NCBI RefSeq assembly: GCF_024223415.1
Contig: NZ_CP100500.1
Origin: Escherichia coli
GTDB taxonomy: Bacteria > Pseudomonadota > Gammaproteobacteria > Enterobacterales > Enterobacteriaceae
Direction: 5' to 3' (one strand)
DNA: 64,000 nucleotides
Shown here: in pieces, positions 5,974-56,425 of the stretch
How positions within the stretch are numbered: the stretch's first letter is position 1
Layout of the letters: every line of letters begins with the position of its first letter
The notes under the pieces: generated by a model
What the model saw: only the letters and a program-made list of their open reading frames with translations
What the model was told of the DNA's origin: nothing
The model's database searches: none
Program-made: the position numbers and the translations under genes

Positions 5974-8245
5974 GGAAAACTCCCCAGTTTTGCAGCGATG
6001 CCAGTGCCTGCTGTTCGAGTTGTTGATGATGTGCAATGGCCTGTGGTGGACAATGCAACGGCATTTGCAGCGCCGAAACGGGAAGTTGCGCCAGTTGATA
6101 ATGCTCAAGCACCTGATGCGCCAGCGTCCCGCGTTCTCGTGGTGGTAGCCAGGCCATCGCCGCGCGTAAATCGGGCAGGGCGTTAATAAAATCGGCTTCA
6201 CTCAGTTGATTTAAATGACTGCTGAAACCAGCGATAAATGCCGGCTGACAGGCCAGTTGATGGCGGGCCAGCGCCAGCAAACCGTGCAGCGCCTCACCAG
6301 ATTGTGCCGGGGATAACTGCGCCAGCATCGTCAGCGCCGCTTCGGCACTGGCGTTGGGATGTTCCAGACGCATTAGTGCGCCAAGAGCCGCGCCGCGATC
6401 CAGCGCCGGGGCATGAATTGCCTGACTGCGTCGCTCCAGTAAGGCTACCGCCGCAGAAAGAGAAACGCCGGGTAAATTAACGCCGCTATGTAGATCGCGC
6501 AGAATATGGCAAAGCGCTTGCCAGCTATGCAGGTGAGCGTGAAACTCCTTTTCATCCGGTCTGCCGTTAGATTCACACAGCCACAGCGTGCGATCGATAG
6601 TCGCGCATAACGTCGTTTGTAATATCTGCGCGCCTTGCATACCGCTAATTTCATCCAGCCGCCATAAGGCATAAAGCACTTCCAGCGCCTGGCCCATTTC
6701 GGCAAATTGATTTTCCTGGGCGATTAATAGTGTGAGTTGCTCCAGTAATTGTTGACTGAAGGACGCCAGACCCGCTAACGCCGCCTGGCTAAGACATGTG
6801 GTGATACTGCCGATTCCGCCCGCGTCCAGCATATCGGCTTCTAATTTATTGCGTGCGGCTTCCTGGAGTGTGGCACCAAAACAGGCGGCCTCAATCAATG
6901 CCGCATGCTGGCTAAGCGGGCGGGTTAATTTCCAGCGTTCTTCACCGTTGCCTGCAAGTGTCAGTGTACTTCCCTGCTGGCGTACAATCCCAGGGATCTC
7001 CAGTATTGCCAGCCGATGTAACACCTGACTTTGCGCCAGCCCATCGGGGGTAAAGCGATTTAAGGTAAGCTCCGCCGGAAGGGAGATTGCGGTACGTTCC
7101 AGTTCGCAGGTGACATCTTTTGGCAGAGGCGGTTGTGGCGTAGAAGGGGCAAGTTTACCGAATCCGTCACCCGCTAATGTGTCTATCAACGTTAGCAGAA
7201 TCGGATCGGTATCGGGATGAATAACGCCGCGATAGCTCCACGGCAACGGCGCGTTCAGGGCTTCTTTAATCAGCGAGCCTGCTATGGCATCCAGCCAGTC
7301 AGTGCGTAACGGTAGTGTATGACCGCGCAACTGTGCCAGCGCCATCGCATGCAGATGAGCGGCAGCCATATCCGCGGTAGAAGCGGGCAATTTGTGCTGG
7401 CGCAAACGGGTAAGGATAGTTTTTAGCAGTTGTTCACCGGCCTTCTGCAAGCCCCACTGCCAGCACCAGTTTTGCCATACCGGGGCAGGCATTCCTGAAA
7501 GGTATCCTGCCAGCACATCAAGGCGCTTTTCACTGTAGGGTGTGAGATAACAACCTGTAACGGCATCTGCCAGCGAGGGCAATTCTGGCTTGTTAATTTT
7601 CTGAGGGCATTCGCGCCACATCTTTGCCAGTGCCGGAGCGTGCCAGCCACCGCAGACAACTAACACGTCGCCATTATTTTGCTGCATCGCCCATCCAATC
7701 CAGCGGGCCATAAAGGCTTCGCGCTGACGATTGAGCGCATCGCCGGAGGCGTCGCCCCGCAGTTGGGCAAAATAGTGCGCCAGCGCAGAGGGTAATGCAG
7801 TTTGCTGGCTTTCATCTTCGAACAAGTGATCCCACAGGGTATCGCTGTTATCCATGCGGGTGGCACGCAGCAGTAAGGCCTGGCTTTCATCTTGCGTATC
7901 AGGCGAATCGTCCTCTTCTTCACTCTGCGCCCAGCAAGGCAAATCGATGAAGTAAGTTTGTGCCTGAATGCGACGTGCGGCTTGTAGCGCCTGCCACTCC
8001 GGCGAAAATTCAGCAAATGGCGTCCAGGCACCACGCCCGGGGGCTGCACCGTCCTGATACTGGCAATAACTGTAAATAGCTACCGGAAGCTGGTGGGCTA
8101 AAAACAGTTCGTCTACCCGGTCATTAAAATCAGCCGGGCCTTCAATCAACACGTATCGTGGCCGCTGGCTTTCGATTAACGATTTCACCAGCCGGGCGCA
8201 GGCCGGACTATGATGCCGGATGCCGACAATTAACGGCTCGCTCAT
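5966..8245 (-). CDS. yehM: Large uncharacterised protein YehM
   Basis: 760-aa ORF beginning MSEPLIVGIRHHSPACARL; conserved position between MoxR ATPase and VWA genes. Confidence 0.8.
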   Translation of the reverse strand: MSEPLIVGIRHHSPACARLVKSLIESQRPRYVLIEGPADFNDRVDELFLAHQLPVAIYSYCQYQDGAAPGRGAWTPFAEFSPEWQALQAARRIQAQTYFIDLPCWAQSEEEDDSPDTQDESQALLLRATRMDNSDTLWDHLFEDESQQTALPSALAHYFAQLRGDASGDALNRQREAFMARWIGWAMQQNNGDVLVVCGGWHAPALAKMWRECPQKINKPELPSLADAVTGCYLTPYSEKRLDVLAGYLSGMPAPVWQNWCWQWGLQKAGEQLLKTILTRLRQHKLPASTADMAAAHLHAMALAQLRGHTLPLRTDWLDAIAGSLIKEALNAPLPWSYRGVIHPDTDPILLTLIDTLAGDGFGKLAPSTPQPPLPKDVTCELERTAISLPAELTLNRFTPDGLAQSQVLHRLAILEIPGIVRQQGSTLTLAGNGEERWKLTRPLSQHAALIEAACFGATLQEAARNKLEADMLDAGGIGSITTCLSQAALAGLASFSQQLLEQLTLLIAQENQFAEMGQALEVLYALWRLDEISGMQGAQILQTTLCATIDRTLWLCESNGRPDEKEFHAHLHSWQALCHILRDLHSGVNLPGVSLSAAVALLERRSQAIHAPALDRGAALGALMRLEHPNASAEAALTMLAQLSPAQSGEALHGLLALARHQLACQPAFIAGFSSHLNQLSEADFINALPDLRAAMAWLPPRERGTLAHQVLEHYQLAQLPVSALQMPLHCPPQAIAHHQQLEQQALASLQNWGVFHV

Positions 8246-9454: not shown

Positions 9455-9490
9455 TAAAAAAACCTGCTGGTGAGGCAGGTTCTTTTATTT
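9455..9490 (-). terminator. Intrinsic terminator downstream of yehK (minus strand)
   Basis: Hairpin aacctgctgg/ccagcaggtt with flanking A/T runs. Confidence 0.5.
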
Positions 9491-9650
9491 ACTATTTTCA
9501 GGCCTAACACCACAGCCTGTGCAACATCGTGTTCCAACGAACGAATTATAACCACGGCTGGACCCCGTTGCAATTAAGATAATGAGATTTATAATCCAGG
9601 CCATTGGGACGTTGCGCCGGATCGGACCAATTTGAATTATTTAGAGTATA

Positions 9651-28745: not shown

Positions 28746-29969
28746 GTGGGAAAAGCACTAAACAAACTGAGCGATTCGACGTTAAAAAAATTGGCGTCTG
28801 TCCAAGCAGAAAAAGAGCGTTTTTACTCCGACGGGGGCGGGCTGGAGATTAAACACTCAAAGGGCGGCAAATTAACCTGGTATTTCCGGTACCGAACGGG
28901 AGGCCGTGAGGTTGCCGCAGAGCGGTTAAAGCTGGGGGCTTACCCTGAATTGTCGCTGAAAGCTGCAAGGGAAAAACGCGCACAGTGCCGGGCATGGCTG
29001 GCTGAGGGTAAAAACCCCCGTTATGAGTTGTGCGCCACAGTACAGGAAGCGCTAAAACCCGTTACGGTGAAGGAGGCGATTAACTACTGGCTGGATGAAT
29101 ATGCGAAGGATAACCGCAAAGACTACATAAAGCTGGTGCAACGTATGGATAAGCACATCATTTGCCATATAGGGGCAATTCCCCTTGATAAGTGTGATAC
29201 AAGGCAGTGGATCGCATGTTTTGACCGTGTACGAAAAAAAGCACCAGTAGCAGCAGGGCACGTCATGCAAACCTGCAAACAGGCGCTAAAGTTCTGCCGC
29301 AGGAGACGCTACGCGTTCAGTAATGCCCTGGACGATTTGATCGTCAGCGATGTGGGTAAGAGAGCAGAAATTCGCGAGAGGGTGCACAGCAACAGCGAAT
29401 TAAAGGAAATTTTACGCGCTATTGATGGTGATGTGTTCGCGCCTTACTACAGCGCGTTAATGCGCTTGCTGATTGTGTTCGGGTGCAGAACGGCAGAGGT
29501 CAGACTTTCAGAGATCAAAGAATGGGATCTGAAAGAAATGTTGTGGACAGTGCCAAAAGAGCATAGCAAAACGAAGGTAACGATATTCAGGCCAATCCCC
29601 GATGGCATTTTGCCGTTCATTCAGAAGCTGGTGGAGCAGAACCGGCATACAGGGTTATTACTCGGAGAACTGAAAAAAGATACCACGGTAGCGCAATATG
29701 GGCGAAATGCGCATAAGCGGCTTAACCAGGAACACTGGACGCTGCATGACTTTCGCCACACGTTTACAACGATGCTGAACGATTTAGGTGTCGATCCGCA
29801 TATCGTGGAGCACATCACAGCGCATCAGATGCCCGGTCAGCAAAAAACCTATAACCATTCACGCTATTTACAGGCGAAGCGAGACGCTCTGAATCTGTGG
29901 GTTGAGCGCCTCGATGTGCTGGCTGGAAATCATGAAAATATTGTCATATTAAGGGCTGAAAATGAATAA
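28746..29969 (+). CDS. int: Tyrosine recombinase, P4-type integrase
   Basis: N-terminal arm-binding-like segment (SDGGGLEIKHSKGGKLTWYFRYR) and C-terminal catalytic region (HDFRHTFTT...); apparent GTG start. Confidence 0.9.
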   Translation: MGKALNKLSDSTLKKLASVQAEKERFYSDGGGLEIKHSKGGKLTWYFRYRTGGREVAAERLKLGAYPELSLKAAREKRAQCRAWLAEGKNPRYELCATVQEALKPVTVKEAINYWLDEYAKDNRKDYIKLVQRMDKHIICHIGAIPLDKCDTRQWIACFDRVRKKAPVAAGHVMQTCKQALKFCRRRRYAFSNALDDLIVSDVGKRAEIRERVHSNSELKEILRAIDGDVFAPYYSALMRLLIVFGCRTAEVRLSEIKEWDLKEMLWTVPKEHSKTKVTIFRPIPDGILPFIQKLVEQNRHTGLLLGELKKDTTVAQYGRNAHKRLNQEHWTLHDFRHTFTTMLNDLGVDPHIVEHITAHQMPGQQKTYNHSRYLQAKRDALNLWVERLDVLAGNHENIVILRAENE

Positions 29970-30747
29970 TCTGGGCCGTGTATATCATACGCTGCCAATG
30001 GCAGCTAAAAAAATGGGATGTACTGTAGAGGATATTCTACATTTTGGTGCAACTAACCGACTTGAAATATGTGCGTATATTGATGATATTGAACAGAGAA
30101 AAGATTATTGCACTTTTAATGTGTTTTTTGATAATGAAGATAGCGAGAATAGTTTTTCTAAAACTATAAATAAATATAATTCCATATTTACTGACATGTA
30201 TGAAATATCATTGTTTAATTATAATGATGAGTTTTGTGTTGATGATGAGCGTATGGTTATTGAAGGTTTGTATGCTAATCATATGAAAGGCTTTTTTGCA
30301 ATACCATCTGAATTTCTTGTCGAAGTTGAATTGTCAAGTGCCTGTGAAATCATAAATCTATCGCCTCGTTATTTATATACACCGAAAGGTTATGGTGATT
30401 ATATTCGGTTGGATAGTATAGAAGGTCTTTCTATTCCAGAAAACAGGCTCGTGATATTCGATAGTGAGATATCGGGTTTTAATTATCAAAAGAAACCTAA
30501 ATATGCCGGAGGTGAAAGAGAATCACCTAAAACCAGAGCTAAAAAAGCCGAGATAATACCTGCTCTCATAAAACTGATCCCTGAGATGCAAGATGTGGAT
30601 TTGGAGGATACACCCGTATCCAAAATTGCAGAAATGATAGAGGTTATTGCTGCACAAAGAGGGGTTGAGTTACCTAGCACTCACAGGCAGACATGGCAGA
30701 AATATTTAGGGCGTGATGCTGGTGACGTTCCAAAACGTCAAAAGTGA
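29962..30747 (+). CDS. Hypothetical cargo protein, AT-rich, translationally coupled to int
   Basis: 261-aa ORF overlapping int stop by 8 bp; noticeably lower GC than flanks; no motif recognised. Confidence 0.6.
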   Translation: MNNLGRVYHTLPMAAKKMGCTVEDILHFGATNRLEICAYIDDIEQRKDYCTFNVFFDNEDSENSFSKTINKYNSIFTDMYEISLFNYNDEFCVDDERMVIEGLYANHMKGFFAIPSEFLVEVELSSACEIINLSPRYLYTPKGYGDYIRLDSIEGLSIPENRLVIFDSEISGFNYQKKPKYAGGERESPKTRAKKAEIIPALIKLIPEMQDVDLEDTPVSKIAEMIEVIAAQRGVELPSTHRQTWQKYLGRDAGDVPKRQK

Positions 30748-30837: not shown

Positions 30838-31062
30838 ATGAATCAAAATACACAATTTCAATCACTATCAGATCGCGTAATCCGTGAGGATGAATGCCGT
30901 AAGTTAACAGGAGTGTGCCGCACTACACGCTACGAACTGGAGAAAAAAGGGAGCTTTCCGTCTCGCCGTAATCTTGGTGGGCGTTCTGTAGGTTGGCTGC
31001 TGTCCGAGGTTATGGAATGGGTTAAAAGCCGGGATCGCATTAATTCAGGCAAGGCAGCGTAA
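30838..31062 (+). CDS. alpA: AlpA-family phage transcriptional regulator
   Basis: 74-aa small HTH protein with typical AlpA-like pattern (SDRVIREDECRKLTGVCRTTRYELEKKGSFP). Confidence 0.8.
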   Translation: MNQNTQFQSLSDRVIREDECRKLTGVCRTTRYELEKKGSFPSRRNLGGRSVGWLLSEVMEWVKSRDRINSGKAA

Positions 31063-31200
31063 AGGGGAGTATATGACACATAAAACAAAGGCGACCGGGG
31101 GCGGTCGCCAATGGGAAAACACTAAACATAAGCCCGGCCATCATAGCGATTTGCTGGCTGGTGGGCAATGTGTCCAGTGTGGTGGCTTGCTGGTGGATTG

Positions 31201-31428
31201 TCAGCCAGGCGGTCGGTTTTTGCCGGATTTAAGCCGCCGTGGGTATTTATCGACAAAATCTTCAAGGGCAAATTTTTCTGGTGGCACTAAGCGCGGCGCT
31301 GGTGGTGGTATTTTTGTTCTGGTTAGTTCTTCCTCAAGTCTGGCGCAGGCTTCTGACTGCCTTTGCCGGATGATTTCATCATCTTGCGTTTGCGTGTCTT
31401 GTATTGGTGATAGTGTGTTGTTGGTCAT
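31201..31428 (-). CDS. Hypothetical protein, second gene of leftward operon
   Basis: 75-aa ORF downstream of the RHH-like gene on the minus strand, followed by a hairpin at 31094-31112. Confidence 0.45.
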   Translation of the reverse strand: MTNNTLSPIQDTQTQDDEIIRQRQSEACARLEEELTRTKIPPPAPRLVPPEKFALEDFVDKYPRRLKSGKNRPPG

Positions 31429-31485
31429 GATACTGCCCTGTAAAGCAATGCGCCGTAGTACCTCACACCACGGCGCTGATAGTGA

Positions 31486-31683
31486 TTATTCTGATTCTTT
31501 GGCCTTGCGGCGCTGTTCATATTTTAATTTGCGTCCACAGGCATCTAAGACCCATGCGGAAAAATTAGCACTAGGATTAGTTAATTTTTCTTGTTCAACG
31601 CTGGCATCAATCCCATCTATAAGCTCATGTGGGAATCGAATATTTTTCTTTGCTGATTTGTTGTTTGTGTTACCACTAGACAT
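31486..31683 (-). CDS. Putative ribbon-helix-helix DNA-binding protein, candidate island repressor
   Basis: 65-aa ORF; N-terminal KKNIRFPHELIDGID resembles the beta-strand/helix of CopG/Arc-type RHH proteins; divergent from rightward operon. Confidence 0.45.
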   Translation of the reverse strand: MSSGNTNNKSAKKNIRFPHELIDGIDASVEQEKLTNPSANFSAWVLDACGRKLKYEQRRKAKESE

Positions 31684-31710
31684 TGATGCACCTCACTTAA
31701 ATGGACTTTA

Positions 31711-31790
31711 TGGGCGCACACAATACAGCAAAAAAAGTGAGAAGTTAAGTATTGACATGTGCGCACACATGATTCTAATCTGTGCGCACA
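31711..31790. promoter_or_regulatory. Divergent promoter/operator region with three copies of palindrome TGTGCGCACA
   Basis: tgggcgcaca (31711-31720), tgtgcgcaca (31758-31767), tgtgcgcaca (31781-31790); TTGACA at 31752-31757 immediately precedes the second site. Confidence 0.55.
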
Positions 31791-31882
31791 GTTTGGGTTG
31801 CATTGCTCAAATTAAGCAACGCCCCGCAGTGCTCGCAACACATGCAGGGCGTCTAACCAAACCGTTAATAGGAGTAACGATT

Positions 31883-32083
31883 ATGGCTGGAACACAGCAT
31901 ACCCCACGCCTTGCGCACACACAAACCGCCTTTGTGTGGCGTTTTCTGGCACTGAGTGCCGGAGAATCTCAAATTATCCACGTAACCGCCTGGACGGAAC
32001 GCGAAGCGCGTAACCGTTGCCCGTCCGGTTGTGTCGCTGTATTCGCCGCCCGTATCCGTCAGGGGGAAACCTATGCACAATAA
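31883..32083 (+). CDS. Small protein, possibly Icd-like (host cell division inhibitor family)
   Basis: 67-aa ORF with good RBS (aggag), first gene of rightward operon; family assignment from memory of similar small P4-like proteins, weak. Confidence 0.4.
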   Translation: MAGTQHTPRLAHTQTAFVWRFLALSAGESQIIHVTAWTEREARNRCPSGCVAVFAARIRQGETYAQ

Positions 32084-32303
32084 AACAACACCGGACGCAG
32101 CAGAAGAAGCAATGCAAATACTGATACGTGCGCTCGTTGATGTTACCCACATGGTGGAGATTATGGAGAGAAAATCACAGTCGGAGCACGACAAAAGAAA
32201 ACTTAAAACAATAAAAATAATTGCCAAAAACTCGCTGATAAAAGTTACAGACATCCTTAATGAGGACATTAAAAGAATCAGGGAGAAAGTGTGTGATGCA
32301 TAA
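32073..32303 (+). CDS. Hypothetical protein
   Basis: 76-aa ORF, start overlaps upstream stop, RBS ggggga. Confidence 0.45.
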   Translation: MHNKTTPDAAEEAMQILIRALVDVTHMVEIMERKSQSEHDKRKLKTIKIIAKNSLIKVTDILNEDIKRIREKVCDA

Positions 32304-32523
32304 AATACCTTTTGATGTTCTTATTCATTCTGAAAACGCATTAATCCGTGCAAAGGAAATGGACGCATTACTACTTAAGTTAATTGATGTGCCGGAAAGT
32401 GGCGATGAATCTGATTCAATAATGTTTTCTGCCGTGCGTACGCTATTAACGCATGTTATTAATGAATTAAATACAGTGATGGCAATTCACGAGAATAATA
32501 AAGCGCAGCACACCGGAGAATAA
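32296..32523 (+). CDS. Hypothetical protein
   Basis: 75-aa ORF, start overlaps upstream stop, RBS gggaga. Confidence 0.45.
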   Translation: MHKIPFDVLIHSENALIRAKEMDALLLKLIDVPESGDESDSIMFSAVRTLLTHVINELNTVMAIHENNKAQHTGE

Positions 32524-32528
32524 AAACC

Positions 32529-32828
32529 ATGAAAAATAAAAATTCTGGCGTTAATGCCAGCGGCCCCGCTCGGCCTGAATTTATGAACGGCGATATTTAC
32601 CGCGACCAGTACGGCGGCACGGTAACGATTAAAGGCGTGGAGGAACGGCGCATCACTTACCGCCGTGAAGGCTACGAATATGATTGCGTGATGCCTGTTT
32701 ATCAGTTCCGGCGTGATTTTTCTCTGGTACAGGCAGCGCCCCGCAGTAAACCAACCAGCAGGGAGAAAGCACGCGCCAATATTCAGGAAATAAAAAAGAT
32801 GCTTAACGTATTCAGGGGTAAAAAATGA
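32529..32828 (+). CDS. Hypothetical protein
   Basis: 99-aa ORF, ATGA-coupled to the primase gene. Confidence 0.45.
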   Translation: MKNKNSGVNASGPARPEFMNGDIYRDQYGGTVTIKGVEERRITYRREGYEYDCVMPVYQFRRDFSLVQAAPRSKPTSREKARANIQEIKKMLNVFRGKK

Positions 32829-34573
32829 AACTGGCACCGAACGTAAAAAAACAGCCGCGTGGAATAAAACACAAAGACACAGAGGTGATTATCTTTGCGG
32901 GTAGTGATGCCTGGGCGCACGCGAAACAGTGGCAGGAACAGGACGGCCCCGCATCCGGCGATGATGTGCCGCCTGTGTGGCTCGGGCCAAATCAGCTTGC
33001 TGAACTGGATGCACTGAAAATTGTACCGGAGGGAAAAAAACGCGTAAGGCTGTACAGGGCCGGAGAACTGGATTTGGTGGAGACCAAAAAGATTGGTCAG
33101 AAGCTGGCGGCGGCAGATATTCAGGATGCGAATTTTTACTCTGAAGGAATGCACGGCCAGAAGGTGCAGAACTGGCGGCGCTATCTGAGTGCTGAGCGTG
33201 AAAATATTGCCGCAGGGCTTACCATGCCGGAACAGAAAAAAGCACAACTTTCACAGATGGCAGACAGTGAACGGGCACAGCTTCTTTCTTCCCGCTTTGA
33301 TGGTGTCTGCGTCCATGCAGAAAGTGAAATCGTTCACGTATGGCGCGGCGGGGTATGGTGTCCGGTCAGCACAATGGAACTTAGCCGCGAAATGGTGGCG
33401 ATCTATTCAGAGCACAGGGCCACTTTCAGCAAGCGCGTAATCAATAACGCCGTGGAAGCGTTAAAAGTTATTGCCGAACCAATGGGCGAGCCGTCCGGCG
33501 ATTTGCTGCCGTTCGCCAATGGTGCGCTTGACCTGAAAACGGGGGAATTTTCCCCGCACACGCCGGAGAACTGGATCACCACGCACAACGGCATTGAGTA
33601 CACGCCACCAGCACCAGGGGAGAATATCTGCGACAACGCGCCAAACTTTCATAAATGGCTTGAGCACGCAGCCGGAAAAGACCCGCGCAAGATGATGCGT
33701 ATATGTGCCGCGCTGTACATGATTATGGCGAACCGGTACGACTGGCAGATGTTTATTGAGGCCACCGGAGACGGCGGGAGCGGCAAAAGTACATTCACAC
33801 ACATAGCCAGCCTTCTGGCAGGGAAACAGAACACGGTAAGCGCTGAGATGACATCGCTTGATGATGCTGGTGGGCGTGCGCAGGTTGTCGGGAGTCGGCT
33901 TATTGTCCTGGCAGACCAGCCGAAATATACAGGCGAAGGAACGGGCATCAAGAAAATCACGGGCGGAGACCCCGTGGAAATAAACCCGAAATATGAGAAG
34001 CGTTTTACGGCGGTAATCAGGGCGGTGGTGCTGGCTACCAACAATAACCCGATGATATTCACCGAACGGGCCGGAGGTGTGTCACGTCGTCGCGTAATTT
34101 TCCGTTTCGACAATATCGTCAGTGAGGCTGAAAAAGACAGGGAGCTACCGGAAAAGATTGCGGCTGAAATCCCTGTCATTATCCGCCGCTTGCTGGCGAA
34201 CTTTGCCGACCCTGAAAAGGCACGGGCTTTACTCATTGAACAGCGAGACGGTGATGAAGCTCTGGCAATAAAGCAACAGACGGATCCGGTTATTGAGTTT
34301 TGCCAGTTTCTGAATTTTCTGGAGGAAGCGCGCGGCCTGATGATGGGCGGCGGCGGTGACTCTTCCAGGTACACGACCAGAAACAGCCTTTACCGCGTCT
34401 ATCTGGCGTTTATGGCGTATGCAGGCAGGAGCAAACCGCTAAACGTAAATGACTTTGGCAAGGCTATGAAGCCAGCGGCGAAAGTTTACGGACATGAATA
34501 TATAACGCGCAGGATTAAAGGGTTTACGCAAACCAACGTGACAACAACAGACGACTGCGACGCGTTTTTATAA
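32825..34573 (+). CDS. Phage/plasmid primase, P4 family (NTPase/helicase domain)
   Basis: 582-aa ORF with Walker A GDGGSGKST and D5/P4-alpha-like C-terminal NTPase architecture. Confidence 0.8.
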   Translation: MKLAPNVKKQPRGIKHKDTEVIIFAGSDAWAHAKQWQEQDGPASGDDVPPVWLGPNQLAELDALKIVPEGKKRVRLYRAGELDLVETKKIGQKLAAADIQDANFYSEGMHGQKVQNWRRYLSAERENIAAGLTMPEQKKAQLSQMADSERAQLLSSRFDGVCVHAESEIVHVWRGGVWCPVSTMELSREMVAIYSEHRATFSKRVINNAVEALKVIAEPMGEPSGDLLPFANGALDLKTGEFSPHTPENWITTHNGIEYTPPAPGENICDNAPNFHKWLEHAAGKDPRKMMRICAALYMIMANRYDWQMFIEATGDGGSGKSTFTHIASLLAGKQNTVSAEMTSLDDAGGRAQVVGSRLIVLADQPKYTGEGTGIKKITGGDPVEINPKYEKRFTAVIRAVVLATNNNPMIFTERAGGVSRRRVIFRFDNIVSEAEKDRELPEKIAAEIPVIIRRLLANFADPEKARALLIEQRDGDEALAIKQQTDPVIEFCQFLNFLEEARGLMMGGGGDSSRYTTRNSLYRVYLAFMAYAGRSKPLNVNDFGKAMKPAAKVYGHEYITRRIKGFTQTNVTTTDDCDAFL

Positions 34574-34597
34574 TTTTTTGTAATTGCTGTCTACCCT

Positions 34598-34815
34598 GTC
34601 TACCTGAGTAAAGAAAAATACATTTAATTCAGTGCATTAAGTTAGGTAGATAGCCTTTTTTTACTGTCTACCCACTATCTACCCTCTCTACCTGATTTTA
34701 CCAGAATCAGACAGGGAGGTAGACACGGGGTAGATAGTGGATAAAAGCACTCTACCCCGCTGAAAGCCGCGCCATTACTGGCATGAGGGCCACTAAGGTA
34801 GGTAAGGTAGACAAG
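34598..34815. repeat. Iteron cluster, putative island replication origin
   Basis: Many direct and inverted copies of GTCTACC/TCTACCC/GGTAGA motifs immediately downstream of the primase gene. Confidence 0.6.
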
Positions 34816-34861
34816 GGGAGGCACAACTCAAAACTTTTTAAACGAGGGGGTAAAAATAAAA

Positions 34862-35119
34862 ATGCACACATCAGAAAAATTTAACAATCAGAAGAAATCA
34901 CATAACCGCGCCATTGACCTTACAGAGCACTGGCTGAGGGTGGCGATAAAAATCATCGACCGCAACGCGGGAGAAGGATACGCGAAAGCACATCCCGAAC
35001 TGATAAGCGCATTCATGACCACAGCGGCGGCAAACTTTGCCACGTTGACAGAACGGGAGATTGCCGAAGCGGAACAGGTGACAACCATCAATGTTAAAAC
35101 CGGAGAGCAGACAGCATGA
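34862..35119 (+). CDS. Hypothetical protein
   Basis: 85-aa ORF, ATGA-coupled to ssb. Confidence 0.45.
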   Translation: MHTSEKFNNQKKSHNRAIDLTEHWLRVAIKIIDRNAGEGYAKAHPELISAFMTTAAANFATLTEREIAEAEQVTTINVKTGEQTA

Positions 35120-35526
35120 CAGCACAGATAGCGGCTTACGGGCGGCTGGTGGACGACCCGCAGACAAAACAGACCAGCAAGGGAACACCGATGACGCTGG
35201 CACGTATGGCGGTATCGCTGCCATGCAGCCAGGCACAGGATGGACAGGCGACGTTATGGCTATCGGTCATCGCATTTGGTAAGCAGGCCGACTTCCTGGC
35301 TAAACATCAAAAAGGCGACGTTGCCAGCGTATCCGGCACGATGCAGGTCAGCCAGTGGACCGGACAGAACGGGGAAACGCGGCAGGGTTATCAGGTTATT
35401 GCAGACAGCGTAATCAGTGCCCGTGCGGCACGTCCTGGCGGGAACAGACGCAAAACCACAGGCACACAGGGTAATCAGCCACCAGCGGGAGGCGATGACC
35501 CTTACGGTGATGATATTCCGTTCTGA
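35116..35526 (+). CDS. ssb: Single-stranded DNA-binding protein
   Basis: OB-fold-like N-terminus, Gly/Pro-rich linker and acidic C-terminal tail ending DDIPF. Confidence 0.8.
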   Translation: MTAQIAAYGRLVDDPQTKQTSKGTPMTLARMAVSLPCSQAQDGQATLWLSVIAFGKQADFLAKHQKGDVASVSGTMQVSQWTGQNGETRQGYQVIADSVISARAARPGGNRRKTTGTQGNQPPAGGDDPYGDDIPF

Positions 35527-35536
35527 GGGGGTGACG

Positions 35537-35809
35537 ATGGTACATGACCGGATAGCGGAGGAACTGGAGGCGAAAGGATTTTACCGGAGGGCGGCCGCGC
35601 GATGGGGTGAAGTTATGAGGCTGGTGAGCACTGACAAGGAGCGCGAACAGGTGGCAATGCGACGGCTGGAATGTTCACAGAAGGCACAGAGGCCACCGGA
35701 GCCGCCGGATGATTTAGGCGCTCTGAAAAGGTCAGTTAATCGCACTGAAAAACAAATGGGGATAGCTGGTATTGGCAAAGCAATATGGCGCAACTACCCG
35801 CAGAAGTGA
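35537..35809 (+). CDS. Small putative transcriptional regulator, PerC-like
   Basis: 90-aa ORF; resemblance to PerC-family prophage regulators is from memory and weak. Confidence 0.4.
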   Translation: MVHDRIAEELEAKGFYRRAAARWGEVMRLVSTDKEREQVAMRRLECSQKAQRPPEPPDDLGALKRSVNRTEKQMGIAGIGKAIWRNYPQK

Positions 35810-35815
35810 GCACAC

Positions 35816-35839
35816 AGCCGGAGCAATCCGGCTTTTTTG
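35816..35839 (+). terminator. Intrinsic terminator
   Basis: agccggagcaatccggc followed by TTTTTT. Confidence 0.6.
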
Positions 35840-36050: not shown

Positions 36051-36257
36051 ATGGCAGAAGAGAAAAAAGGCGGGGTGACGGTCTACATAAGCCCCGACAT
36101 CGTGGAGGCGCTCAAGGAACGCCACCAGCAGAATGTAAAAGCAGGCATTGCGGCAGGACTTGATCCGCTGGCGATGGTTGAGCCGTCAACAGGCTGGCAG
36201 GTGCGTACCTATTTACGTGCGGCGCTGGGTATCAATCAGGTTCACGGAGGTGAATAA
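36051..36257 (+). CDS. Hypothetical small protein, first gene of capsid operon
   Basis: 68-aa ORF with RBS, stop overlaps capsid gene start. Confidence 0.45.
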   Translation: MAEEKKGGVTVYISPDIVEALKERHQQNVKAGIAAGLDPLAMVEPSTGWQVRTYLRAALGINQVHGGE

Positions 36258-37312
36258 TGACAGGCAAAGCAACGGCACTTACAACTAACCAGCTTTTCGC
36301 GTACCTGAATCGCGGGGATATTTCGGAATTAAAATTCAGTCCGCTGTTTACCACGCTGTTTTTCCCGAACGTGGCGACCTTCAACACCCAAAACATCATG
36401 CTGGACACCCTGGACATTGAAGAGGTTACGATGTCAGCGTTCTGTTCGCCTATGGTGGGTAGTCAGGTCCAGCGCGATAAAGGGTACGAAACCAGCACAA
36501 TCAAACCTGGCTACATGAAGCCAAAGCACGAAATCGATCCAACAAAGACCATCATGCGCATGGCTGGAGAAGATCCGGCACAGCTTAACGACCCAACCTA
36601 TCGCCGTATGCGCCTGATTACTGGCAACATGCGCCGCCAGGTAAACGCCATTAAAGCGCGTGTTGAATGGCTGGCGGTGAATGCGGTAACGACCGGAAAA
36701 AACATCATTGAGGGCGAAGGCATAGAACGCTATGAAATCGACTGGAAAATACCGGAAAACTGCATCATACAGCAGGCCAGTGGTAAAAAATGGTCCCAGC
36801 AGGATAAAGACATGCACGACCCAATCTATGACATCGAGCTTTATGCTGATCAGGCAGGTTGCCCCGCCAACGTCATGATTATGGGCGGTGAGGTATGGCG
36901 CACATTACGCAGCTTTAAAAAATTCCGTGAACTGTACGATCTTTCCCGTGGATCAGAATCCGCCGCCGAGCTGGCCTGTAAAAACCTGGGCGAAGTGGTG
37001 AGCTTTAAAGGCTATCTTGGTGATCTGGCCCTTATCGTCTATTCCGGCAAATACACTGACAGCGACGGCACCGAAAAATATTTCCTTGAGCCTGATTTGC
37101 TGGTCCTGGGTAACACCAATAATAAAGGGCTGGTGGCATATGGTGCGATTATGGATCAGGAAGCGGTAAGAACGGGCGCAACGCAAAACATGTACTACCC
37201 GAAAAACTGGATTGAGGACGGCGATCCGGCGATTGAGTACGTGCAGACGCACAGCGCACCGCAGCCGGTACCGGCAGATATTCGCAAATTTGTTACCGTC
37301 AAAATTGCTTAA
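36257..37312 (+). CDS. Major capsid protein, lambda gpE-like
   Basis: Clear blocks of similarity to lambda gpE from memory: KFSPLFTTLFF, KPGYMKPKHEIDP, EDPAQLNDPTYRRMR, YSGKY, YPKNWIEDGDPA. Confidence 0.85.
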   Translation: MTGKATALTTNQLFAYLNRGDISELKFSPLFTTLFFPNVATFNTQNIMLDTLDIEEVTMSAFCSPMVGSQVQRDKGYETSTIKPGYMKPKHEIDPTKTIMRMAGEDPAQLNDPTYRRMRLITGNMRRQVNAIKARVEWLAVNAVTTGKNIIEGEGIERYEIDWKIPENCIIQQASGKKWSQQDKDMHDPIYDIELYADQAGCPANVMIMGGEVWRTLRSFKKFRELYDLSRGSESAAELACKNLGEVVSFKGYLGDLALIVYSGKYTDSDGTEKYFLEPDLLVLGNTNNKGLVAYGAIMDQEAVRTGATQNMYYPKNWIEDGDPAIEYVQTHSAPQPVPADIRKFVTVKIA

Positions 37313-37323
37313 CGGGGGATTCT

Positions 37324-37659
37324 ATGGACGCTCCATATATTGAGTTATTTGCAGGCAGCCAGCAGGTATCCACGACGCTGGTACATTTTGCCGCTGATGC
37401 TGGCGTTATTCAGGAATTTACCCCGCTGATGCTGGCAGACAATGGCGAGTTTAAGGCGTGGGATGGTCAGGAATCTGGCAAAGCTGTTTATCTGACTTCG
37501 CACCCCGTGGACACGTCAAAGCAGAAATCAGCACAGTGTTACAAAACGGGGATATTCAATATTGCCGCCGTTAACTGGCCTGACAGCGTCGACACCGATG
37601 CGAAAAAATGCGCCGCCTTTGCGGGTTCCGGCGTATCCGTTCAGCCGCTGGCCCGATAA
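37324..37659 (+). CDS. Head decoration protein, lambda gpD-like
   Basis: Similarity to lambda gpD blocks: TPLMLADNGEFKAWDG and YKTG.F....WPDSVDTDAKKCAAFAGSGVSV. Confidence 0.75.
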   Translation: MDAPYIELFAGSQQVSTTLVHFAADAGVIQEFTPLMLADNGEFKAWDGQESGKAVYLTSHPVDTSKQKSAQCYKTGIFNIAAVNWPDSVDTDAKKCAAFAGSGVSVQPLAR

Positions 37660-47839: not shown

Positions 47840-47975
47840 ACGCCTTATACGGACAACACCACCCCGTAGGACGGATAAGGCGTTTACGCTGCATCCGGCA
47901 ACCTATGCCTGATGCGACGCTGAAGCGTCTTATCATGCCTACATAGCACTGCCACGTATGTTTACACCGCATCCG
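47840..47975. repeat. REP/BIME-type palindromic elements
   Basis: gccggatgcagcgtaaacgcc-type units and tgtttacaccgcatccggca seen after fbaB. Confidence 0.5.
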
Positions 47976-56253: not shown

Positions 56254-56340
56254 AAAAAAATAAGCCCGTGTAAGGGAGATTACACAGGCTAAGGAGGTGG
56301 TTCCTGGTACAGCTAGCATTTTATGGGTTATGTTTTTCAG
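56254..56340 (-). ncRNA. cyaR: CyaR (RyeE) Hfq-dependent small RNA
   Basis: Reverse complement reads gctgaaaaacataacccataaaatgctagctgtaccaggaaccacctccttagcctgtgtaatctcccttacacgggcttattttttt, matching remembered CyaR with terminator hairpin. Confidence 0.8.
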
Positions 56341-56425
56341 CGAAACGGATGATAACCTTAATAAATGCAGCTGTATGTGATCGGTTTCTAAGAATTTTCC
56401 ATCCGGGAAAAATAATCGAAATTAA

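Follow-up and report, generated by a model that had tools for sequence, protein, structure and literature searches.

A putative ribbon-helix-helix repressor and its three proposed operators in the divergent control region of a phage-inducible chromosomal island of the EcCICFT073 type

How are the replication genes of a Gram-negative phage-inducible chromosomal island (PICI) kept silent while the island is integrated? The question is raised by a stretch of 64,000 nucleotides of Escherichia coli (contig NZ_CP100500.1; called the window below), in which a compact divergent control region lies between a leftward pair of small genes and a rightward replication operon. AlpA is the published activator and master regulator of the Gram-negative PICIs, and whether a repressor exists was called unclear (PMC6092414). 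An earlier note, made from the sequence alone, had described the gene pair and seen in its first product a possible repressor of the ribbon-helix-helix (RHH) type. The genes are arranged as it described: a 65-residue protein is encoded at 31683..31486 and a 75-residue one at 31428..31201, both on the minus strand, and the rightward genes start from 31883. The 65-residue protein belongs to the YlcI/YnfO family (DUF3950) and is called YlcI here. Judging from the DNA and from a structural model, YlcI probably binds three operators (O1-O3), represses the rightward operon and regulates its own gene. The results comprise site layout, co-variation, a predicted fold and synteny; binding, repression and a route of induction are what we infer.

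A pattern search of the 64-kb window for TGTGCGCACA, with at most one mismatch, gave only three matches, all inside 80 bp. The first is TGGGCGCACA at 31711-31720, with one mismatch to TGTGCGCACA, and the other two are exact copies at 31758-31767 and 31781-31790, which confirms the three perfect or near-perfect 10-bp palindromes claimed for this region. Three matches in total are not unusual, because shuffled sequences average about four. It is the clustering that is unusual: three or more matches within 100 bp occurred in none of 1000 first-order Markov simulations, at least two exact copies in only 6 of 1000, and by analytic calculation about 4e-5 triples would be expected within 80 bp. Comparison of about 46 related promoter sequences refined the functional unit to a 12-bp site, to which no strand is assigned. 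O1 (31710..31721, ATGGGCGCACAC) has the imperfect core TGGGCGCACA, and O2 (31757..31768, ATGTGCGCACAC) and O3 (31780..31791, CTGTGCGCACAG) have exact cores. A fourth candidate at 31909-31922 has three mismatches, which is chance level, and was not counted.

The positions of these sites relative to two putative promoters are suggestive. The rightward -35 element TTGACA (31752..31757, plus strand) directly adjoins the second copy, which the earlier note had placed downstream of it in the spacer, and O2 fills the 18-bp spacer between it and the -10 element TAATCT (31776..31781, plus strand). O3 covers the last two bases of this -10 together with the predicted transcription start near 31788. The consensus over 46 sequences is TTGAC(A/G), an 18-bp spacer and TAnnnT, with T in 38 of 46 at the first -10 position and A in 40 of 46 at the second; the sixth base is, in most listed sequences, the T that opens the downstream operator. 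The TTGAC is kept beside the middle operator in nearly all related loci, with TTGAA in its place in the GGTGACTTGCAC-type alleles, and the -10 of EcCICFT073 is TATAGT. On the other side, the putative leftward -10 of ylcI, TATTGT (31720..31725, minus strand), corresponds to a TATnGT element conserved in related loci, which precedes and overlaps O1; O1 covers the end of this element and the start, which is expected near 31713. A weak candidate -35, TTAACT (31743..31748, minus strand), was read from the sequence at a 17-bp spacing. The repressor-occlusion arrangement proposed earlier is borne out at the level of sequence, with two sites bracketing the rightward -10 and one on the protein's own promoter. 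This geometry fits occlusion-type repression of the rightward operon plus negative autoregulation.

In the mechanism that we propose, YlcI would act as an RHH dimer on three 12-bp sites with the core TGTGCGCACA. With O2 in the spacer of the rightward promoter and O3 over its -10 end and start, bound protein would exclude RNA polymerase, and the operon from the Icd/Kil-like gene to the primase would be held off as long as the island is integrated. O1, the weaker site, would mediate negative autoregulation from the -10 and start of the ylcI promoter. The protein and its sites would form an exchangeable, allele-specific cassette, resembling immunity types.

The layout was followed in related loci. 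Six loci came from a one-genome-per-species scan (two in Rahnella and one each in Pectobacterium, Klebsiella, Proteus and Xenorhabdus) and 60 more from a scan of viral contigs, which together give about 34 distinct combinations. The three-site layout is found in almost all of these, covering Enterobacterales (Escherichia, Klebsiella, Rahnella, Pectobacterium, Proteus, Xenorhabdus), Pasteurella and viral contigs. One 12-bp site ends exactly at TTGAC, the next follows 23 bp further on and overlaps the -10 TAnnnT, and the third lies about 47 bp away in the opposite direction, some 25 bp before the ylcI start codon, and overlaps the leftward TATnGT. The positions are thus conserved; the sequence of the sites varies by locus, for example GTGTGCGCACAC, GTGTGCACCCAC, GTGYACCCCCAC, GTGTTTAAACAC, GTGYAYAAACAC, GTGTTNGGGCAC and GGTGACTTGCAC. 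The middle site is identical to its own flanking sites at 10.2 and 9.4 of 12 positions, compared with 7.3 and 7.5 of 12 for loci with a different operator. Such likeness of three separate sites within a locus is not explained by linkage; it requires a binding factor specific to the locus. Operator-number variants of the window's allele were also seen in two viral contigs, upstream of position 1501: a 23-bp unit is duplicated in L016, giving four TGTGCGCACA sites, and a deletion in L023 fuses O3 and O2, leaving two sites. A capsid-forming PICI-like E. coli island (L001) carries a second, tandem module upstream of its main one (7340-7955), with a small ORF (open reading frame), a YlcI-like ORF at 7601..7780 and a fragment resembling the leader and icd start at 7843-7955.

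Which protein follows the operator sequence was examined by Mantel tests of operator distance against protein distance (Spearman r, 2000 permutations). The N-terminal arm of YlcI (residues 1-15) gave r 0.61 and its remainder (residues 16-55) r 0.57, values reached in 0 of 2000 permutations each. No correlation was obtained for the Icd-like protein (r 0.05; reached in 552 of 2000), the ORF downstream of ylcI (r -0.02; 1139 of 2000) or AlpA (r -0.14; 1808 of 2000). The earlier link between the palindromes and the 65-residue protein is supported in that the site sequence co-varies with this protein alone among the neighbours, and the tests ruled out AlpA, the Icd-like protein and the 75-residue ORF as specificity determinants. 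At the residue level, the operator core co-varies with YlcI residues 1-15, His14 always occurs together with a half-site ...ACCCAC, and there is hardly any variation in Arg16 or in the outer GTG/CAC of the sites. Exchange of the cassette is also visible between genomes. Between the window and L001, identity is 99% over 31201-31515 and 87% over 31803-35837, but no relationship exists across exactly 31516-31802, the stretch made up of the YlcI body and the three sites; YlcI is the only protein-like product encoded within the exchanged block. EcCICFT073, L049 and L051 have a common Icd-like type, and EcCICFT073, L016 and L051 a common AlpA type, yet in both groups the YlcI alleles and operators differ. 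The exchanged cassette has its left recombination boundary inside ylcI, at the tail: the last eight or so residues (window 31486-31515) are identical or nearly so in otherwise unrelated E. coli YlcI alleles, reading RRKAKESE in the window and L001 and RRKAKEQE in EcCICFT073 (L069).

The protein itself passes the NCBIfam model NF041551 (YlcI_YnfO_N) with 59 bits against a cut-off of 30 (E 3.5e-16), and also matches Pfam DUF3950 (PF13132, E 1.6e-6) and a PHROG without an assigned function. None of the 115 relatives found carries a name other than YlcI/YnfO or DUF3950, and no functional study of YlcI, YnfO or DUF3950 was found in the openly searchable literature (subscription journals were outside the scope). 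Its sequence (..KKNIRFPHELIDGIDASV..NFSAWVLDAC..) shows a strand-then-two-helices pattern. A monomer AlphaFold model had two helices only, at low confidence and with the strand unformed, and was replaced by a fused-dimer model of two linker-joined copies built on a 38-row alignment. In the latter, both halves contain beta10-18, alpha19-32 and alpha41-64, with a predicted local distance difference test score (pLDDT) of 85-90 in the core and a predicted template modelling score (pTM) of 0.65. The predicted topology is beta-alpha-alpha, with the N-terminal strand paired across the dimer as in RHH proteins, so that the RHH-like character suspected before is supported by the model. The 13-residue basic N-terminal arm differs with the operator type. 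A 64-residue homologue (..RNIRFPNQMIEQI..NFSAWVIEAC..) also occurs in phage lambda (NC_001416.1, 48109-48303; L073 1810-2004, minus strand), about 200 bp from the right cos end. The reference record does not annotate it, and the DNA upstream showed no obvious triple operator.

Several points weigh against the proposed repressor. The fused dimer is an artificial construct; no RHH Pfam family matched the sequence (the best was HicB_lk_antitox, E 0.25); a search of the PDB with the family profile gave no sequence relative; and Foldseek ranked TraY first with E-values that were not significant. The RHH fold is accepted here as a prediction, not proof. A consensus promoter scan brought neither the rightward nor the leftward promoter to threshold, and both are therefore deduced from cross-locus conservation. 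Since ylcI adjoins the sites, part of the co-variation may be plain linkage, and the middle of a long antisense ORF co-varies too because the same DNA encodes it. Finally, over-expression of AlpA alone induces EcCICFT073, and therefore any repressor must be one that AlpA can override.

The last two points lead to the setting of the module. A long eta-like ORF of 336 residues (31073..32083, plus strand) begins 11 nt past the alpA stop, behind a strong Shine-Dalgarno sequence (AAAGGGGAG). It crosses the two leftward genes in antisense orientation, then the operators and the leader, and its 3' end is the Icd/Kil-like gene, read in the same frame. Its counterpart in EcCICFT073 has 428 residues (L069 5767-7053), and further examples are found at L070 4435-5109 (minus strand) and L071 3634-4608 (minus strand). 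The icd frame is open for at least 429 nt upstream of the ATG in 23 of 28 loci, compared with 1 of 56 control frames; its median open length is 788 nt, where the two control frames have 12-15 nt. Where the two frames overlap, replacements are fewer and more conservative in the YlcI frame than in the antisense one (BLOSUM -0.01 versus -0.76). No family matches the part of the long ORF that precedes the Icd-like domain, and the middle of the ORF looks non-globular. From these two observations the long ORF looks kept open rather than maintained as a folded protein. Its wobble positions coincide with those of ylcI, and the deposited annotations of two satellites call the long ORF and miss ylcI.

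The same design is known from the left operon of phage P4. The P4 eta ORF has 214 residues, begins where the alpA-family gene orf88 stops and has kil as its 3' end, and the C-terminus of Eta matches NF033153 (E 1.4e-20), the same Icd-like model as the window gene. The window likewise has an alpA/vis homologue, a long ORF with a nested 3' Icd/Kil-like gene and a P4-family primase downstream. In P4, a constitutive promoter lies within eta, its transcript is terminated by the CI-RNA immunity, Kil is the truncated product, and full-length eta translation from the upstream late promoter prevents termination (PMC10111431). Rfam found neither C4 nor isrK in window 31400-32200 at E<=10, nor in EcCICFT073 (L069) and L001 at the gathering score, while the P4 control was detected with 74.9 bits for C4 and 60.8 bits for isrK; the P4-type RNA immunity was rejected as the mechanism here. 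Given the P4-like arrangement and the missing C4 and isrK, the module is read as a protein-based replacement for P4 RNA immunity at the equivalent internal promoter, so that the cassette would lie antisense in the eta-like ORF at the place of the CI RNA. A BLASTP comparison of the Icd-like protein with the annotated P4 'cI' ORF gave no alignment, and the homology is shown at family level through NF033153. This 'cI gene product' coding sequence (L072 8168-8584, minus strand) is annotated as a transcriptional repressor in the P4 record where Rfam finds the CI (C4) RNA.

The position of the module inside a conserved long ORF, as in P4 eta/kil, suggests that a promoter further upstream bypasses the repressor. 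Published experiments show that AlpA acts as an activator on its own promoter, that induction needs it, and that over-expressing it is enough (PMC6092414; cf-PICI preprint). On induction, AlpA-dependent transcripts might start upstream and, translated as they are made, extend through the cassette to the replication genes, bypassing the operators and colliding with transcription of ylcI; a repressor on the internal promoter could then be reconciled with the findings on AlpA. We offer this read-through route only tentatively, as one that may well prove wrong. An intrinsic-terminator-like hairpin for the leftward operon (31109..31090, minus strand; 8 pairs, 7 of them G-C, with the T-run tail TTTGTTTTAT) is unidirectional, with a T run on the minus strand only and none on the plus strand, and fits this picture. 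An AlpA antiterminator described in P. aeruginosa (PMC7969949) was not used as evidence, as that paper has no link to the E. coli AlpA family. The suggestion that the region is the island's immunity switch stands in part: the repressor layout is supported, but the label covers only half of the control logic, as AlpA is the published activator and the module lies inside an eta-like ORF. A wider conjecture, possible but on the doubtful side, is that in Gram-negative PICIs, including EcCICFT073 and the capsid-forming islands, a DUF3950 RHH repressor with allele-specific operators replaced the P4 CI RNA as hetero-immunity, that the ORF is kept open mainly so that translation protects the read-through, and that convergent transcription driven by AlpA flips the island to replicating.

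Could the true immunity be based on RNA or on termination, as in P4, with hairpins or antisense transcription controlling the operon and the RHH protein autoregulating or fine-tuning? The rightward leader gives this some substance. Hairpin 1 (31819..31852, plus strand; RNAalifold and pair counts, 18 loci) has 89.9% of cells paired, compared with 28-42% when the partners are slid, and a covariation score of 0.252 versus 0.083 (0 of 500 shuffles). Hairpin 2 (31863..31879, plus strand) presents the Shine-Dalgarno AGGAG of the Icd-like gene (31870-74) in its loop, with compensatory changes in 4 of 5 pairs. Between them lies a conserved C-rich single-stranded stretch, TCTAACCAAAC. The region 31819-31879 matched no Rfam family. 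With compensatory changes in both hairpins, a post-transcriptional control layer in the leader is likely, whether as a rival or an addition to the repressor, and the layers could co-exist. The P4-like architecture and the C4/isrK matches reported in several Gram-negative PICIs (PMC10111431) point the same way. The Rfam result above speaks against RNA as the true immunity factor, as does the fact that the two best operators are on the rightward promoter and not on the protein's own, and we consider it unlikely. It is still less probable that YlcI binds the sites as an activator or dual regulator, for example stimulating the leftward promoter. Back-to-back promoters with three sites do resemble lambda OR, and spacer-bound regulators such as MerR can activate promoters with over-long spacers (18 bp here); however, O3 and O1 lie across the -10 ends and the predicted starts, where occluding repressors typically sit. 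RHH regulators so arranged are repressors in the known cases.

The leftward pair might instead be a type II toxin-antitoxin system, with an RHH antitoxin and a 75-residue toxin, in which the palindromes serve only autoregulation and the system stabilises the island. Two of the three sites are, however, on the opposite promoter, and a hairpin separates the two leftward genes. A conserved cognate toxin gene directly downstream, as expected of a type II system, is not present: the ORF downstream of ylcI varies between loci or is missing from them and shows no co-variation with the operators, and the 75-residue ORF has no match to a toxin, Pfam or PADLOC family. With no PADLOC or Pfam matches, a toxin-antitoxin or defence-gene reading was rejected as very improbable. 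Least probable of all is that another factor binds the sites, whether AlpA, the Icd/Eta-like product, a factor of the host or a protein of the helper phage. In favour of this, AlpA binds DNA and activates these islands, and PHROGs labels the Icd-like family 'transcriptional repressor'; that label, carried by the Icd/Kil-like families phrog_1743 and phrog_6196, seems to derive from the old 'cI gene product' coding sequence of P4, which overlaps the RNA gene. Near-identical AlpA or Icd-like proteins occur with different operators, in line with the Mantel results, and more than 12 operator types in one host range exclude a single host factor. Repression by YlcI remains the preferred explanation of the three sites.

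The surroundings identify the region as the early control region of an EcCICFT073-type PICI. An integrase (28746..29969), the alpA-like gene, a P4-type primase, SSB (single-stranded DNA-binding protein), a PerC-like gene, and capsid and head-decoration homologues follow in order, and tail and lysis genes are absent. The gene order is the same as in EcCICFT073 (NC_004431.1), the prototype Gram-negative PICI that has been studied by experiment, and the four genes from the capsid gene onward are identical in length. In EcCICFT073 the YlcI/YnfO gene C_RS30120 is divergent from the Icd-like gene, with a GTGGGCCACAC site after TTGAC that is repeated at the -10; the module is also present in the capsid-forming PICI-like island L001 and in the Pasteurella multocida satellite Pmp7. 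The alpA-like gene (30838..31062, plus strand, 74 residues; phrog_2790, E 1e-17, excisionase/transcriptional-regulator family) is homologous to the published PICI activator and is placed like the post-int helix-turn-helix gene of EcCICFT073. Between the integrase and alpA, a 261-residue ORF (29962..30747, plus strand) overlaps the integrase stop by 8 nt, is without a match in Pfam, NCBIfam, PHROGs and PADLOC, and may be an accessory cargo gene. The 75-residue ORF, taken from the ORF list, likewise has no match in NCBIfam, PHROG, Pfam or PADLOC and is not conserved across loci. The hairpin between the ylcI stop and this ORF (31450..31476, minus strand) has a 12-bp stem and is a possible attenuator or terminator; a similar one is found at the equivalent position in EcCICFT073 (L069 ~6439-6466) despite different flanking genes. 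The rightward operon starts with the Icd/Kil-like gene (31883..32083, plus strand, 66 residues; NF033153, E 5e-18) and contains the primase (32825..34573; TIGR01613, phrog_864). SSB (35116..35526), the PerC-like gene (within 35417..35809), the major-capsid homologue (36257..37312) and the head-decoration homologue (37324..37659) lie beyond. Gathering-score Rfam matches to OrzO-P (9456-9531), naRNA4 (47869-47939) and CyaR (56258-56343) indicate that the window belongs to an Escherichia-type chromosome and are unrelated to these findings.

Switches in which an RHH repressor acts through operators over a divergent promoter are familiar. New are the protein family, its presence in a model PICI, the behaviour as an allele-specific cassette, and the antisense place in an eta-like ORF, replacing the P4 CI RNA. 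The openly searchable literature gave no described repressor for Gram-negative PICIs, and the present data point to one in EcCICFT073-type islands, outside the published model of these islands. If this is true, there would be a concrete candidate for how PICIs of this type stay silent, and a function for the widespread DUF3950 (YlcI/YnfO), found also in phage lambda. The mosaic replacement of a short block would then be explained as immunity-type diversification among competing satellites, and PICI regulation would be linked to the P4 eta/kil design.

Comparison with known systems places the module between several of them. The P4 immunity region comprises vis/orf88, eta with kil nested in it, the promoter PLE, the CI RNA and the alpha primase. 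The module shares with the P4 left operon the alpA-family gene, the long ORF ending in Icd/Kil (NF033153), the internal promoter and the P4-family primase downstream; whereas the P4 immunity factor is the CI RNA (Rfam C4) with seqA (isrK), here a protein gene lies antisense in the eta-like ORF together with three DNA operators, and P4 has no YlcI-like ORF. Compared with Arc/Mnt (P22 immI), CopG and other RHH repressors, YlcI has no detectable sequence relationship, its basic arm varies with operator type, and the sites follow the pattern GTG-N5/6-CAC, in which the core varies and is often asymmetric. The Stl proteins are much larger helix-turn-helix proteins. Like the genes for Stl/Rpr of the Gram-positive PICIs (SaPIs), ylcI is divergent from the satellite replication operon, and its product would keep the island quiescent (PMC6092414). 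The repression by Stl is lifted by a helper-phage protein that binds the repressor, whereas for Gram-negative PICIs the literature names the activator AlpA (PMC6092414). In lambdoid phages, cI/cro with OR1-3 also has three operators between divergent promoters. The island differs in that one small predicted RHH protein stands in place of two helix-turn-helix proteins, with no Cro counterpart identified, and in that the cassette lies antisense inside another ORF; in both cases, the repressor and its operators are swapped as a unit between otherwise similar genomes.

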